Part shown: piece after piece, positions 17,175 through 61,020 of the stretch | How positions within the stretch are numbered: position 1 is the first letter of the stretch | How the letters are laid out: every line of letters starts with the position of its first letter | Assembly (NCBI GenBank): GCA_937880755.1 | Contig: CALGRX010000020.1 | Coordinates: forward strand, 149,645-213,644 | Length of the DNA: 64,000 nt | DNA from: an uncultured Clostridia bacterium | GTDB lineage: Bacteria > Bacillota > Clostridia > Christensenellales > UBA3700 | Direction of reading: 5' to 3' | Notes under the pieces: model-generated | The model's database searches: none | What the model was told of the DNA's origin: nothing | What the model saw: the letters and a program-made list of their open reading frames with translations, nothing else | Program-made: the position numbers and the translations under genes

Positions 17175-17203
17175 TTGCTTTTTGCAATAATATGTATTAT
17201 AAT
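17175..17203 (+). promoter_or_regulatory. Sigma-A-type promoter for the HPr-like/DUF4364 pair
   Basis: TTGCTT, a 17-nt spacer, then TATAAT. It is followed by the palindrome ATTGATAATCAAT (17204-17216). Confidence 0.5.
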
Positions 17204-17233
17204 ATTGATAATCAATAATTTTGGAGATAGACT

Positions 17234-22255: not shown

Positions 22256-22612
22256 TTAAACGTACTTTCCGTTGGACGTGTTGAGATTGTTGACCCCCGT
22301 CATCATTACTTCGTTGACGTAAGGGTTGACGATGCGATAAAAGACGATTTTGCCCACCCGCCTATCCGCCACTATTCGAGCGTCGCGGAGAAGTTTGAGC
22401 TGATGAGATACGGTGGTTTGGTTGAGTCCCAACAATATGCACACGTCACATACGCAAAGTTCCGTCACGGCAAGCACCGACAGTATCTTGAGCCTCGTGC
22501 TGTCGCTAAATATAAAATAAAAATCGGCTATTCCCTTGACAGCTCCGTTGGGCGGAATGTAGCTCCTAATAGATTGTTCTTCACTCTCCGTCAACGTCAA
22601 ACACCCGCGCAT
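22256..22612 (-). CDS. ArsR/SmtB-family metalloregulator with an ELCVCDVC site
   Basis: wHTH segment LKILSVLAVTELCVCDVCILLGLNQTTVSHQLKLLRDARIV. I chose the start at MRGCL (ATG 22612), which has GGAGG 4 nt upstream; the longer track ORF would leave only 58 nt for two divergent promoters. Confidence 0.85.
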   Translation of the reverse strand: MRGCLTLTESEEQSIRSYIPPNGAVKGIADFYFIFSDSTRLKILSVLAVTELCVCDVCILLGLNQTTVSHQLKLLRDARIVADRRVGKIVFYRIVNPYVNEVMMTGVNNLNTSNGKYV

Positions 22613-22669
22613 AACCCCTCCGTGCAAAATAATATGCCTATTGGTTGATAAGTACATATTATCACGGTA

Positions 22670-22697
22670 ACACAATCGTATTTTGTCTCATATTGTA
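22670..22697 (+). promoter_or_regulatory. Sigma-K-like (mother-cell) promoter candidate for cysteine-string gene 1
   Basis: ACAC-N15-CATATTGTA fits the AC-N17-CATAnnnTA consensus. The same module, with the same spacing, precedes the paralog at 60993-61020. Confidence 0.45.
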
Positions 22698-22733
22698 AAA
22701 TAAGAAAAAACATTGAAAATAGGAGGTCAATCT

Positions 22734-22919
22734 ATGGATAATTGCTGCTACTTGTGGATTATCATCTTACTCTTAAGCTGTTGCTGTGGCGACAATGAAG
22801 GAAGATCCGGCAACAACTGTTTCTTCGGCAGAGACGGTGGATGCGACTGTTGCACGCTCATAATCTTGATACTCATCATCTGCTGCTGTTGTAGAAACGG
22901 CGACGACGACGTAATCTAA
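22734..22919 (+). CDS. Cysteine-string mini-protein 1 (61 aa, 13 Cys)
   Basis: MDNCCYLWIIILLLSCCCGDNEGRSGNNCFFGRDGGCDCCTLIILILIICCCCRNGDDDVI. AGGAGG lies 7 nt upstream of the ATG, the gene has its own terminator, and a paralog lies at 60740-60961. Confidence 0.7.
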   Translation: MDNCCYLWIIILLLSCCCGDNEGRSGNNCFFGRDGGCDCCTLIILILIICCCCRNGDDDVI

Positions 22920-22948
22920 GATACGTATAAGATACATATTATGCTAAA

Positions 22949-22980
22949 ATATCCACCCCAACCAAGGGTGGATATTTCTT
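22949..22980 (+). terminator. Terminator of cysteine-string gene 1
   Basis: ATATCCACCC-caaccaa-GGGTGGATAT followed by TTCTT. Confidence 0.75.
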
Positions 22981-23682: not shown

Positions 23683-24324
23683 TTAGCAACAAGGTATCAA
23701 ATCTCCGCCCATACACTCGCAACAACAGTCGCAACATATGAGTGTGGAACAAGTATTGCAACAAGCTTCGTCGTTAGCGGCACGCCTTGCCTCTTGGTCG
23801 GGGCGAGAATATCCCGCTCTACCCGCCGCAGCACTACCGCTAGCTGAGCTGGCGTACTCTGCGCTTGCCCCCGATAGCACTTTGTTGAGTCTTTCTCTAG
23901 CTTGCTTATACTTTTCGTTGTCCTCGTCGAGAGTGAGGGCTATGTCGAGTTGCTTTTTGCTCTCTACGTTCCAACCGCGCTTGTGATAAATGATGGCTTG
24001 CAGATAGTGCCAATATCCGTCTCTCATCTCGATATTGTCAAGCTTAGACTGCGCCCCTTCGAGATTGCCGTCCCTAATCATATCTTCTATCTCGCCTAAG
24101 CCGTTGCCCTCCTCGGTAAAGTGGAAGTCATTGGCTTTGTCCTCTATGCATTGGTGATAGGCTCGCTCTAATTCGTCGAGTTTTTTGGCAGCCAAGTTGC
24201 CAACCTCGCCCTCTTCAAAAAGTTGAGATTGGTACTCTTCTCTAAGCCTTTCGTAGGCTTGCCTTATCTCTTCTTGCGTGGCGTCATTGTCCACACCGAG
24301 TATCAAATACGGATCTTTTTGCAC
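23683..24324 (-). CDS. J-domain protein with a C-terminal cysteine string
   Basis: The N-terminus DPYLILGVDNDATQEEIRQAYERLREEY is a J-domain helix I/II pattern. The last 27 aa, ACCNTCSTLICCDCCCECMGGDLIPCC, contain 11 Cys. The start is GTG with GGAG 9 nt upstream. Confidence 0.85.
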   Translation of the reverse strand: MQKDPYLILGVDNDATQEEIRQAYERLREEYQSQLFEEGEVGNLAAKKLDELERAYHQCIEDKANDFHFTEEGNGLGEIEDMIRDGNLEGAQSKLDNIEMRDGYWHYLQAIIYHKRGWNVESKKQLDIALTLDEDNEKYKQARERLNKVLSGASAEYASSASGSAAAGRAGYSRPDQEARRAANDEACCNTCSTLICCDCCCECMGGDLIPCC

Positions 24325-47402: not shown

Positions 47403-48893
47403 ATGAAAAGAATAGTCAAAGCCTTCGCATTAGTCACATTCTTATCGTGTTTTACGAGGTTTGTGTCCTTTATATTCAAAATCTACCTTTCTCGACTGCT
47501 GGGCGCGGAAATATTGGGCGTATATCAAATTACATTTTCGCTGTTTTCTCTCTTTGCGTGTCTTAGTATGTCGGGCATACCCGTAACTCTATCAAGACTT
47601 ACCGCCGAAGAATACACTCTCGACGGTGGCAAGGCTGTGGGCGGATTGTTTTCTTCGGCAATGCTACTAAGCCTGTCGATATGTACGGTTATTATCGCCG
47701 TTTTGGCAATATTCCCCGCTATACCTAAAGCACTGTTTAGTGACGAGAGGTGTGTAAAGCTCTTTTACGTAATGTTGCCTATGCTCGTTACCTCGTCGAT
47801 ATACTCTATCGTCAGAGGTTGGTTTTGGGGTAAAAAGGAATTTTTCACCTTTTCGATAACCGAACTTATCGAAGAGATAATCAAGATTGCATTTACTCTT
47901 TCGCTACTTATGACGGGCATATTCGGCGTTACTAAGTTTTATTCTTACGCCGTAGCCATGATTGTAAGCGATATAGTAATGGTAGTTATTCTTTTTGCCT
48001 GCTTTATTTACAAAGGAGGCGTCGCAAAAAGACCTCTATACGCCAAAAAAATTGTCAAATCGGCAACTCCTTTGACAGTAACTAGGCTCTTTGGCTCGCT
48101 TATGTCGGCGTTTTTGTCGTTGGTTATACCCGCAATGTTGGTCAAATACGGCTTGGATACGCAAGTGGCTACTGCGCAATTCGGCAGAGCGAGCGGTATG
48201 GTCATGCCTATATTGCTTGCCCCCACCAGCATCGTAGGCGCTATGACCGTCGTATTAATCCCCGAGCTTGCGGAACAAAACAAAAAAAACAGCCCCAAAG
48301 GGCTGAAAAGCAAGATTTCTACGGCAATAGAATTTAGTTTTATTATCAGTTGCGCTTTTTATATCATATTTATGGCGTGTGGGCAAAACTTCGTTTCGCT
48401 TATTTACCACGACCCCGAAGCGGGAAATTATATGCCTAAGGTTGCGTTGTTGATGATACCCCTATGTATCAATAATATGGCGATAAGCATACTCAACTCC
48501 TTAGGCAAAGAAAAACAAACGTTCCTCTCTCACATTGCGTGTTGCGTAGTTTTGGCAATAACGACTGTCGTTACACCTAAATATTTGGGTATTTATTCCT
48601 ATTTCCTCGCCTTAGCGCTATTCCACACCGTAGGCACGGTAATCAATTTGACAATGATTACCCGCATAGTTGAGCCCGATAGAAGATGCGCGTTGCATTG
48701 CTTGGCGTGCCTAGCCTTTGCTTGTATCGCGGGAGTTGGAATGTCCGCGCTAAACAATGCAATACAACACGTTCTTACGCCCGCAATTTGCACTGTGATA
48801 AGCGGTGTGTTGTCGGGCGTAATATTCGTTGCCTTTTTGCTCGGATTTAAAATAGTAGATATAGGCGGATTTTTGCCCAAAAAGTTGCGATAA
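47403..48893 (+). CDS. MOP-superfamily polysaccharide/lipid II flippase (SpoVB/MurJ-like)
   Basis: 496 aa with about 14 TM helices and an N-terminus typical of SpoVB-type proteins (FIFKIYLSRLLGAEILGVYQ). Confidence 0.8.
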   Translation: MKRIVKAFALVTFLSCFTRFVSFIFKIYLSRLLGAEILGVYQITFSLFSLFACLSMSGIPVTLSRLTAEEYTLDGGKAVGGLFSSAMLLSLSICTVIIAVLAIFPAIPKALFSDERCVKLFYVMLPMLVTSSIYSIVRGWFWGKKEFFTFSITELIEEIIKIAFTLSLLMTGIFGVTKFYSYAVAMIVSDIVMVVILFACFIYKGGVAKRPLYAKKIVKSATPLTVTRLFGSLMSAFLSLVIPAMLVKYGLDTQVATAQFGRASGMVMPILLAPTSIVGAMTVVLIPELAEQNKKNSPKGLKSKISTAIEFSFIISCAFYIIFMACGQNFVSLIYHDPEAGNYMPKVALLMIPLCINNMAISILNSLGKEKQTFLSHIACCVVLAITTVVTPKYLGIYSYFLALALFHTVGTVINLTMITRIVEPDRRCALHCLACLAFACIAGVGMSALNNAIQHVLTPAICTVISGVLSGVIFVAFLLGFKIVDIGGFLPKKLR

Positions 48894-49507: not shown

Positions 49508-49552
49508 AAAAAAACCTCCTAAAATTAGAGGTCCATTGAAAAATATTATTTT

Positions 49553-49645
49553 GCAACGGACGCAACTCAATATCGCAAGCATAGCTTTTCGTTTGTGAGC
49601 AACATCCCATCTCACAACACTTAACGCATTGAGTTTACTCTGCTG
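49553..49645 (-). promoter_or_regulatory. Tetrahydrofolate (THF-I, folT motif) riboswitch
   Basis: The minus strand reads GCAGAGUAAACUCAAUGCGUUAAGUGUUGUGAGAUGGGAUGUUGCUCACAAACGAA ... AUAUUGAGUUGCGUCCGUUGC. This matches block by block the Eubacterium siraeum THF aptamer as I recall it (GAGUAG ... GCGUUAAGUG ... AUGGGAUGU ... ACGAAG ... UGCAUCCGCUC). P1 and P2 pairings are preserved. Confidence 0.9.
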
Positions 49646-49720: not shown

Positions 49721-50437
49721 ATGCTAACGGTCTTTATAAGAGCAATTATAATTTATTTCTTTTTGCTCATCGCTATGCGACTAATGGGCAAAAAGCAACT
49801 TGGCGAATTGCAACCCTTCGAATTTGCAATTTCGCTGATTGTGGCAGAGCTGGCGTGCATACCCATGTCGGATACGCAAGTGCCTATCGTCTACGGTCTA
49901 GTGCCTATTTTTACCTTGTTTATACTTGAGTTTATCGTCACCAAAATGGTCAAGCACTCTATCAAGCTGCGCAAGGTTATCAACGGCAAACCCGTCATAG
50001 TAATAACGCCACAAGGCATCGACTACAAGGCAATAAGCCAACTTGATATGACTATCAACGATATTATGGAAGCCTTGCGCGCCAAGTCTTACCTATCTCC
50101 CGCCGAGATACATTACGCGATAGTCGAGACCAACGGCGACGTGTCGGTGATACCAAAATCCGCCAATCAACCAGCTACCCTAGGCGACCTCAACGTGTCC
50201 AAGCAAGACCCCGAACTGCCTTTTACGTTGGTGTGCGAAGGCAAAAAGCTGTCGGAGAATATACAGTTGTCGGGCGTGGGAGAAGACTTCGTGCAAGCGG
50301 TGATGAAAAAATATAATATCAAGCAAAAGGATATTTTGTTGTTATCCGTGTCGGGGCAAGATGAGTTTTATCTTCAACCAATAGAAAAACAATATATTAC
50401 CGGCAAAATTGACGAGGTGAATAATGACGGGAATTAA
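49721..50437 (+). CDS. DUF421 (YetF-like) membrane protein
   Basis: 238 aa. The stretch RLMGKKQLGELQPFEFAISLIVAE is a DUF421 signature. Confidence 0.85.
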   Translation: MLTVFIRAIIIYFFLLIAMRLMGKKQLGELQPFEFAISLIVAELACIPMSDTQVPIVYGLVPIFTLFILEFIVTKMVKHSIKLRKVINGKPVIVITPQGIDYKAISQLDMTINDIMEALRAKSYLSPAEIHYAIVETNGDVSVIPKSANQPATLGDLNVSKQDPELPFTLVCEGKKLSENIQLSGVGEDFVQAVMKKYNIKQKDILLLSVSGQDEFYLQPIEKQYITGKIDEVNNDGN

Positions 50438-50813
50438 AAAGATAGTATTGGTAACTGTAATATTCGTGTTGATAGTTGCGGCGGGCATAGCCGAGCAATT
50501 GTATATAGACAGAACCTTCGACAAACTCGAAGACTATGCCGACGACCTTGCCGTGCTACTACAAGCCGAGAGATACGTCGAGGCGTTGGAATTGACGGAA
50601 AAACTATCAACTTGGTGGGGAAAAGAGAGAGATAAGTTGGAATTTTTGTGCTCCAACGTAGATATAAAAGAGATATATCGTGAGATTGGCGAGTTGCAAG
50701 GCTCTCAGTACGCCGAGATGTACGACGACTCTATCACTCGTGCCAACGTGCTAAAATATATGGCGCAAAACTCCAAAAACCTCTTGGCTTTTAAATTGAA
50801 AAATATTTTGTAA
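50424..50813 (+). CDS. DUF4363 family protein
   Basis: 129 aa with one N-terminal TM helix. It overlaps the DUF421 gene by 14 nt, the usual partner arrangement. Confidence 0.75.
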   Translation: MTGIKKIVLVTVIFVLIVAAGIAEQLYIDRTFDKLEDYADDLAVLLQAERYVEALELTEKLSTWWGKERDKLEFLCSNVDIKEIYREIGELQGSQYAEMYDDSITRANVLKYMAQNSKNLLAFKLKNIL

Positions 50814-60693: not shown

Positions 60694-60722
60694 AGAAAAA
60701 ACACGCCGATTGCTCGGCGTGT
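60694..60722 (-). terminator. Terminator of cysteine-string gene 2
   Basis: On the minus strand: ACACGCCG-agcaat-CGGCGTGT followed by TTTTTTCTT, starting 18 nt after the stop codon. Confidence 0.8.
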
Positions 60723-60739
60723 CCTTTATTATGTATCCG

Positions 60740-60961
60740 TTAGCAGCAGCCACAGCAGCAAAGCAACAGAATAATAGGTATGATGCAACAGATATTGCAG
60801 TTGTTGTTGCAACGTCTATCGCTCACTTCTACGTCGTCATCGGTTATTGCGCGTCTGTCGCGATTGCAGCAGCAACAGAGCAAAAGCAATACTATAAGTA
60901 AGCAACAGCAGTTGTTACCGCAACCGTTATTATTGTTATAACCTCCACCAAAGCAATTCAT
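60740..60961 (-). CDS. Cysteine-string mini-protein 2 (73 aa, 18 Cys)
   Basis: MNCFGGGYNNNNGCGNNCCCLLIVLLLLCCCCNRDRRAITDDDVEVSDRRCNNNCNICCIIPIILLLCCCGCC. GGAGG lies 5 nt upstream, and the gene is monocistronic with its own terminator. Confidence 0.7.
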   Translation of the reverse strand: MNCFGGGYNNNNGCGNNCCCLLIVLLLLCCCCNRDRRAITDDDVEVSDRRCNNNCNICCIIPIILLLCCCGCC

Positions 60962-60992
60962 AGTGACCTCCTTTTTAGTAGTTTTTCTATTT

Positions 60993-61020
60993 TACAATAT
61001 GACCAAAACGCCTAAGGTGT
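60993..61020 (-). promoter_or_regulatory. Sigma-K-like promoter candidate for cysteine-string gene 2
   Basis: On the minus strand: ACAC-N15-CATATTGTAAAATAGAAAAA, nearly identical to 22670-22710 upstream of gene 1. Confidence 0.45.

Follow-up and report, generated by a model that had tools for sequence, protein, structure and literature searches.

What does an ArsR-family regulator with an arsenite-type cysteine site control when its neighbor is not an ars operon? The question is raised by a locus in a stretch of 64,000 nucleotides from an uncultured Clostridia bacterium of the Christensenellales (contig CALGRX010000020.1; the whole stretch is called the window here), in which such a regulator gene is divergent from a single small gene for a cysteine-rich mini-protein. 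Comparison with public genomes and metagenomes identified the locus as a conserved two-gene cassette of Christensenellales-type Clostridia. The mini-protein is probably a product of late spore formation, not of a response to arsenic. The fuller reading, a late mother-cell mini-protein with a dedicated ArsR-family regulator that would act at a shared promoter core, is favored tentatively, at somewhat less than an even chance. The pair has the following features.

22256..22612, reverse strand: gene for the ArsR/SmtB-family regulator, 118 aa, with matches to HTH_5 and NF033788
22439..22462, reverse strand: ELCVCDVC, residues 51-58, in the helix before the helix-turn-helix (HTH; read from the sequence)
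22615..22621, reverse strand: ribosome-binding site GGAGGGG of the regulator gene (read from the sequence)
22721..22726, forward strand: ribosome-binding site AGGAGG of the mini-protein gene, 7 nt before the ATG, kept in orthologues
22734..22919, forward strand: mini-protein gene (mini-gene), 61 aa with 13 Cys; ATG at 22734, stop codon ending at 22919
22743..22787, forward strand: module 1, CC-YLWIIILLLS-CCC, residues 4-18 (read from the sequence)
22842..22892, forward strand: module 2, CDCC-TLIILILII-CCCC, residues 37-53 (read from the sequence)
22947..22977, forward strand: terminator hairpin of the mini-gene, -19.7 kcal/mol, z = -5.4

An earlier note on this DNA had described an ArsR regulator with ELCVCDVC facing a monocistronic 61-residue gene with its own AGGAGG and terminator, and each of these parts was found, including the quoted peptide, its two modules of CC, hydrophobic run and CCC(C), and the 121-nt spacer between the two genes (22613-22733). 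The regulator belongs to the ArsR/SmtB winged-helix family by the curated cutoffs of both Pfam HTH_5 (PF01022; E = 2.4e-14, 53.4 bits against a cutoff of 22) and the NCBIfam model of ArsR/SmtB metalloregulators, NF033788 (81.1 bits against 55). Cysteine makes up 21% of the mini-protein, in CC, CxC and CCC motifs, and in the window species the cysteines flank both helices as a "double cysteine string". None of 200 shuffled sequences folded as well as the terminator hairpin, behind which the U-tract is weak. Rfam found no RNA family in the focal region.

The exact mini-protein has no record as a called gene, and gene callers often picked the opposite strand or no gene at this position. The open reading frame (ORF) is nevertheless that of a real gene, as indicated by in-frame indels and an open frame across contigs and species. 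In six conspecific contigs the ORF stayed open although it had acquired substitutions as well as indels (3, 6 or 9 nt); the resulting peptides have amino-acid changes, a length of 61 or 62 aa and 12-15 Cys. The frame was also open in more than 45 species. In other words, the mini-protein evolves fast yet stays in frame. Among the conspecific contigs the regulator gene differed at up to 29 nt with 0 amino-acid changes, which indicates strong purifying selection, and many public contigs encode an identical ArsR protein.

The earlier note had allowed that the adjacency of the two genes may be coincidental. This was refuted by recurrence of the pairing from both sides. All six conspecific contigs (L001-L006) kept the pair, and in six neighborhoods of more distant regulator orthologues (L007-L012; 81%, 74%, 71%, 59%, 59% and 52% identity) a divergent small gene of the same plan lay upstream in every case. 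In a survey of one genome per species (80 loci, all from Christensenellales-type Clostridia metagenome-assembled genomes), a divergent mini-gene was found upstream of the ArsR orthologue at 47 of the 77 loci with enough upstream DNA. A reverse search with a profile from one mini-protein subgroup returned 23 metagenome loci, 22 of them with at least 450 nt of upstream sequence, and in 20 of these 22 a divergent ArsR gene was present within 700 nt. The genes flanking the pair vary by lineage (uvrC in the window, elsewhere an amylase gene, a uracil-DNA glycosylase gene in L010-L012, or coaX), and recurrence in both directions despite changed flanks indicates that the pair is a unit. The cassette is single-copy, syntenic and vertically inherited, not mobile.

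The control region between the two genes bears on when the mini-gene may be expressed. Two candidate promoters lie there.

22670..22697, forward strand: candidate σK-type promoter of the mini-gene, -35 AC at 22670-71, 17-nt spacer, -10 CATATTGTA at 22689-97 (by consensus matching)
22692..22719, reverse strand: predicted σA-type promoter of the ArsR gene, TTTTCA-N16-TACAAT (by promoter scan)

The consensus for σK is AC at -35 and CATA at -10, while σE promoters have ATA at -35 (PMC3789822). An AC with a CATA-type -10 at N17, within the spacing of 16-17 nt sought, was found at 22670-22697 and again at 60993-61020, before a second mini-gene described below. The pattern AC-N17-CATAnnnTA had five matches in the window, of which two were intergenic, one before each mini-gene. 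The earlier note's reading of this element as σK-like gained support from comparison across species: of 47 distinct orthologous spacers, 20 had AC-N17-CATATTGTA at 57-67 nt ahead of the ATG, and CATATTGT(A/G) with AC 17 nt upstream was the most conserved non-coding block of the spacer. When 23 promoters were aligned on this core, CATATTGT was invariant and AC occurred at N17 in 20.

The opposite strand of the same core was also conserved. Read in reverse complement, part of the mini-gene -10 CATATTGTA gives TACAAT, the -10 of the ArsR promoter, and a TTGACA-like hexamer (at least 4 of 6 matches) was found exactly 16 nt upstream of TACAAT on that strand in 21 of the 23 orthologous regions. The mean match of the -35-like element was 4.26 of 6 at 16 nt, compared with 1.4-2.0 at 15, 17 and 18 nt. 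The exceptions were locus L033 (3/6) and the paralogue without an ArsR gene (1/6), in which AC and CATATTGTA are still kept. Both promoter-like elements are thus conserved. From their sequences we infer two overlapping divergent promoters with a common 9-bp core, σK-type for the mini-gene and σA-type for ArsR, and σK dependence of the mini-gene. One core doing duty as -10 for σK and, on the opposite strand, for σA would be a compact and directly testable regulatory design.

The second mini-gene, near the right end of the window, offers a natural comparison.

60740..60961, reverse strand: paralogous mini-protein gene, 73 aa, 18 Cys, with the same two-module plan
60993..61020, reverse strand: candidate σK-type promoter of the paralogue, AC-N17-CATATTGTA, with no σA-like -35 opposite
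60696..60727, reverse strand: terminator of the paralogue, -20.3 kcal/mol, z = -4.4, followed by a U-run

The paralogue (60740-61020 with its promoter, reverse strand) is divergent from glyQS and carries AC-N17-CATATTGTAAAATA, as at the focal mini-gene. In three other loci (L035, L049 and L089) a mini-gene of the paralogue type is convergent with an ArsR gene and lies immediately downstream of it, in the same coaX and energy-coupling factor (ECF) S-component context as in the window. From this adjacency it appears that both mini-gene types probably once adjoined the regulator. The paralogue bears also on the alternative that the focal genes are functionally unrelated neighbors. In the window it stands without an adjacent ArsR gene, as coincidence would allow; coincidence is nonetheless hardly credible, given the linkage in both directions that survives changes of flank, promoter cores that overlap at fixed geometry, and the paralogue type adjoining an ArsR gene in other genomes.

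Does the organism have a mother-cell program in which a σK-type promoter would be used? No clear sporulation genes were found within the window. A MurJ-family protein encoded at 47403-48893 (forward strand) resembled SpoVB and was rejected as such, scoring 206.8 against an equivalog cutoff of 372.3. A LysM protein in the window was uninformative on sporulation, and a copy of CATATTGTA near its gene was discarded as a promoter candidate, being the start codon region of the SpoVB-like gene. The same scaffold, followed beyond the window in a contig tied to it by an identical ArsR protein and the genes of the window's left end (L093), contains a gene for SpoIVA.

L093 17251-18726, ~3.5 kb to the left of window position 1: spoIVA, with three Pfam domains

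SpoIVA (PF09547; all three Pfam domains) was the one core sporulation marker examined, and it was present. Its gene is preceded by ATA-N16-CATACAAT (L093 ~17196-17222), a canonical σE-type promoter. A spoIVA gene with a canonical σE promoter indicates that the organism has a mother-cell program and uses the standard promoter grammar.

Several points weigh against the late mother-cell reading. The σK assignment rests on consensus matching, and the element on the mini-gene strand would also pass, as GTAACA-N18-TATTGT, for a weak promoter of the σA type. The CATA box is lacking at many loci of mini-protein group D, which forms the majority of the family. One machine-learning tool predicted no sporulation for most Christensenellales metagenome-assembled genomes (PMC12536801). 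No divergent mini-gene was found at 30 of the 77 ArsR orthologue loci, mostly of the CVTD subtype discussed below, and no operator could be defined from spacer comparisons. As for a place in a membrane, insertion is uncertain since the hydrophobic runs have no flanking positive charges, and an AlphaFold2 model built from 100 sequences, with helices at residues 5-17 and 38-52 joined by a disordered linker, is of low confidence (mean predicted local distance difference test score 52).

The first three of these points would also fit a small membrane or hydrophobic protein of vegetative cells whose ArsR-type repressor is autoregulated and which has nothing to do with sporulation or metals, for example an envelope or thiol-stress module, with the regulator perhaps sequestered by its membrane partner as in SdpR/SdpI. 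Some group D loci have σA-like boxes instead, such as TGTATAAT in L088, and the regulator matches the SdpR model at 3.1e-11. That match is weak, however, at 43 bits against a cutoff of 100, and sdpRI form an operon whereas the genes here are divergent. A σA promoter accounts neither for the C-A that is invariant in CATATTGT nor for an AC at N17, and a vegetative module sits poorly with an organism that has spoIVA behind a σE-type promoter. Such a module is considered unlikely.

Where would a regulator bind in this spacer? Two repeats came into question.

22629..22662, unstranded: 8-bp inverted repeat ATAATATG-N18-CATATTAT, in the presumed ArsR leader
22676..22705, unstranded: candidate operator, an imperfect inverted repeat TCGTATTTT / AAAATAAGA with the shared -10 core between its arms (by repeat scan)

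The 8-bp repeat had been pointed out in the earlier note and is present as described, with arms at 22629-36 (ATAATATG) and 22655-62 (CATATTAT). As an operator it was rejected on statistics and on conservation: a perfect 8-nt inverted repeat arose in 46 of 500 shuffles of the AT-rich spacer, which is not significant, and the left arm was not kept in the orthologue loci L007 and L015, which include the one at 81% identity. Overlapping the right arm is a second box resembling TATAAT on the ArsR strand (GATAAT/TAATAT), ~35 nt further on from the first, and TATAAT-like boxes were found at the equivalent place in mini-protein groups B and C. For the repeat around the -10 core, related TTTTGT/ACAAAA elements occur at the equivalent place in other species, as does a perfect palindrome in L034 described below. 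TTTTGT-type elements lie near the ribosome-binding site in ~24 of 46 spacers, in a region so AT-rich that significance was not established, and an inverted-repeat survey of the 46 spacers found no common palindrome. The best operator candidate of any species was in L034, a perfect 22-bp palindrome, ATATTACAAAATTTTGTAATAT, located ~32 to 11 nt before the mini-gene ATG, between a CATA-type box and the ribosome-binding site; it is not conserved as such elsewhere.

The arsenite-type motif of the regulator, from which the question started, was examined across the same species. The earlier note had likened it to the ELCVCDLC of R773 ArsR, and the C-V-C-D-x-C spacing is indeed identical. It had also remarked on the lack of arsB/acr3 or arsC nearby; no ars gene was found within ~6 kb on either side of the regulator, where the Pfam-annotated neighbors are RF-1, ThrC, TrpS, DUF5685, a J-domain protein, a membrane protein, UvrC, HAD, HprK and HPr. 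The pair has uvrC on one side and the membrane protein, J-domain protein, DUF5685 and trpS on the other.

Across the family the motif itself was not kept. In 41 aligned orthologues C53 and D56 were the sole invariant positions of the motif. Only two of the 80 species, the window species and a close relative, have CVCDVC, and C55 occurs together with C58 in these two species only. The others read CV[T/N/S/G/Y]D and then A or S, except for a few that end in C. C58 is common to the closest clade (at least 66% identity), as is an N-terminal Cys4 that is confined to it; there are no family-wide conserved N-terminal ligands. Most ArsR partners of mini-genes have a single cysteine. The idea that an arsenite-type site is a trait of this regulator lineage thus did not hold. 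The window protein does have the site, but with CVCDVC confined to 2 of 80 species it was acquired recently and locally, and the conserved gene partnership does not rest on it. This is a caution that an ELCVCDxC motif is by itself insufficient for calling an arsenic sensor.

A further difference among the orthologues followed the motif. The 31 loci with the variant CVTD(I/L)S (among L013-L092) were mostly without a detectable divergent mini-gene, while orthologues with CV[N/S/G/C/Y]D nearly always had one. This suggests two sister regulator subfamilies.

SmtB was the best match of the regulator among solved structures (9.7e-16), and Lmo1102 of Listeria was the third-best PDB match by distinct sequence (1.1e-12). 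C53 and D56 align with the SmtB α3N ligands C61 and D64. The SmtB α5 ligands Asp104, His106, His117' and Glu120' are absent, the aligned residues being N96, Y98, N109 and T112. The E. coli-type ArsR model NF007528 scored 56.5, below its cutoff of 97.

These data bear on a second alternative, a circuit of the SmtB/SmtA type, in which ArsR represses the mini-gene, As(III), Sb(III), Cd, Zn or Cu at C4, C53, C55 and C58 releases ArsR, and the mini-protein sequesters the metal at or in the membrane. The layout recalls smtB/smtA of Synechococcus PCC 7942, as the earlier note had observed: an ArsR/SmtB regulator is divergent from a monocistronic gene for a cysteine-rich protein of ~60 aa, with a short shared control region. 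The full C-V-C-D-x-C spacing with an N-terminal cysteine conserved in the closest clade, the alignment of C53 and D56 with α3N ligands, the high cysteine content of the mini-protein, and the gain of cysteines by both regulator and target in this clade would all fit such a circuit, and in mini-protein group B long CGCN/CxC repeats resemble metallothionein. The triad of cysteines is found in only two species, however, the α5 site is missing, the E. coli-type model falls short, no ars or efflux gene is nearby, and the promoter looks σK-type rather than vegetative. On balance a metal circuit is doubtful, and the mini-protein family, considered next, adds to the doubt.

The family had escaped annotation. 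Single-sequence searches with the mini-protein gave no match in 5.8 billion clusters or, with full HMMER, in 1.84 billion representatives; the failure is attributed to its composition and small size. The family was recovered only by walking the neighborhoods of the ArsR gene and then by profile search. A profile built from 39 members matched 141 clusters, none with a Pfam domain, and every match named in its source was called hypothetical. Five family members had no match in Pfam or NCBIfam at E values up to 10, including the metallothionein (SmtA/BmtA) and YjcZ-family models, and neither the window mini-protein nor its paralogue had a Pfam match of any kind, CYSTM included. This is a previously unannotated mini-protein family with a strictly linked regulator, represented by at least 141 clusters in public data.

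Members of the family are 47-100 aa long and share a plan, which leads from a short polar N-terminus through a Leu/Ile run of 9-10 residues, a polar linker rich in Asn, Thr, Asp and Gly, and a second hydrophobic run to a polar tail. The near-constant features are the two hydrophobic segments and one cysteine right after the second, which is the sole nearly invariant residue. Otherwise the cysteines vary in number (1-16) and in position, lying beside the helices in the window species, in a CGCN-repeat linker in group B and in the C-terminal tail in group D. The earlier note's suggestion of a metallothionein-like thiol sink is unlikely as the core function of the family, because cysteine positions vary and some members have only 1-3 Cys; for the same reasons, together with the lack of a metallothionein match, the metal circuit loses ground. 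A thiol sink fits the cysteine-rich pair of the window species, not the family.

A small, cysteine-rich, fast-evolving peptide could also be the precursor of a ribosomally synthesized and post-translationally modified peptide, or a small hydrophobic toxin, with the ArsR gene as its regulator or antitoxin. Some family groups do combine a conserved N-terminal part with a variable cysteine-rich tail. Adjacent genes for a modifying enzyme, a transporter or immunity do not recur consistently, though; the flanks vary, the cassette is inherited vertically as a single syntenic copy, and the genes are divergent, unlike the co-transcribed genes of type II toxin-antitoxin systems. This possibility is very improbable.

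The cassette combines components of familiar kinds, an ArsR/SmtB regulator and a small cysteine-rich gene divergent from it, and each has partial parallels. From smtB/smtA it differs in lacking the α5 site and in a promoter that looks σK-type; SmtA is soluble with conserved Cys and His, whereas the mini-protein has two hydrophobic helices, variable cysteines and no metallothionein match. The regulator shares with R773 and E. coli ArsR the cysteine spacing in the helix preceding the HTH, but there is no ars operon here and the second and third cysteines are missing in 78 of the 80 species. With CadC of pI258 and Lmo1102 it shares a CVC motif in α3 and, in the closest clade, a cysteine in the N-terminal arm, but not an N-terminal cysteine pair, a partner efflux ATPase, or conservation of the cysteines across orthologues.

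The mini-protein has partial parallels of its own. YjcZ-family proteins are very small and hydrophobic, with flanks rich in Gly and Cys. Instead of one hydrophobic segment the mini-protein has two, it has a conserved ArsR partner, and it does not match the YjcZ hidden Markov model. The spore surface proteins CotY, CotZ and ExsY and, in C. difficile, CdeC and CdeM are likewise cysteine-rich and fast-evolving, and the mini-gene's proposed late mother-cell expression of σK type is a further parallel. They are larger, do not center on hydrophobic runs, are dissimilar in sequence and lack an ArsR-type regulator of their own. Eukaryotic CYSTM proteins are small, stress-associated proteins in which a short hydrophobic helix is packed with, or flanked by, runs of cysteine. 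The mini-proteins are bacterial, have two modules and have no Pfam match, and bacteria are not known to have S-palmitoylation machinery.

For the proposed developmental setting there are precedents in Bacillus. In B. subtilis the σK regulon includes yjcZ (PMC517825), a loose precedent without homology, and GerE has its place in the mother-cell cascade (PMC517825). GerE is a small HTH regulator acting at σK-type late mother-cell promoters, which is the role proposed for the ArsR protein. It differs in fold (a LuxR/FixJ-type HTH, not an ArsR winged helix), in being σK-dependent and in being global, while the ArsR regulator has a σA-like promoter and is apparently dedicated to one or two genes.

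Under the reading favored here, a late mother-cell mini-protein with its own ArsR-family regulator, the mini-gene, a stand-alone transcription unit, would be read from a σK-type late mother-cell promoter in this lineage, and with such a promoter the mini-protein would most likely be made late in sporulation. It may end up in a hydrophobic layer or membrane associated with the spore, in which its thiols could cross-link, or buffer redox state or metals. The ArsR-family protein would be a dedicated DNA-binding regulator of the mini-gene, with its own gene read from the σA-type promoter. Because the two -10 elements are reverse complements, the two promoters should not be occupied at once, and both genes could be controlled by a regulator that binds at the shared core. 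The extra cysteines (Cys4, Cys55 and Cys58), recently acquired in the clade, may add sensitivity to thiols, metals or metalloids. Regulation of the mini-gene by the ArsR protein, location in the spore and any ligand are put forward as predictions.

A more far-reaching version can be formulated as a bacterial "cysteine-string" system, in which an ArsR-family sensor of thiols, metals or metalloids, working through a bidirectional σA/σK core, gates hydrophobic poly-thiol mini-proteins in the developing spore, where they serve as a redox or metal buffer or as a disulfide-cross-linked layer. We regard this version as quite improbable.

Further observations were made in the neighborhood. The J-domain/TPR protein encoded at 23683-24324 (reverse strand) ends in a conserved cysteine string, ...CCNTCSTLICCDCCCECMGGDLIPCC, which recalls the eukaryotic cysteine-string J-proteins (DnaJC5). 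Its gene belongs to a conserved cluster of trpS, DUF5685, J-domain and membrane protein genes, and the C-terminal motif C.CC..L[IM]CADCCCECMGGDLI.CC was found within 3-6 kb of the ArsR/mini-gene pair in 21 of 92 loci. Elsewhere in the window, a tetrahydrofolate riboswitch (77 bits; 49552-49644, reverse strand) lies upstream of a folT-type ECF S-component gene, and the adjacent ORFs at 49721-50437 and 50424-50813 (forward strand) had no NCBIfam match; their N-terminal sequences prompted a guess of a DUF421 (YetF-like) / DUF4363 pair, which no search confirmed.

The new elements of this locus are the mini-protein family, its strict linkage to a regulator, the dual-strand promoter core and the inferred control by σK; no description of any of them came up in the searches. 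They concern an order, the Christensenellales, that is abundant in the gut, largely uncultured and debated in its capacity to sporulate. If the σK reading is true, the cassette would be a simple sequence marker of late sporulation gene expression in the Christensenellales and would provide a first case of a mother-cell gene with an ArsR-type protein of its own. If the cysteine-string system were also true, the mini-proteins would form a new class of spore component and the functional counterpart of eukaryotic CYSTM and cysteine-string proteins, and the neighboring J-domain protein, which has a cysteine string of its own, might act together with them.

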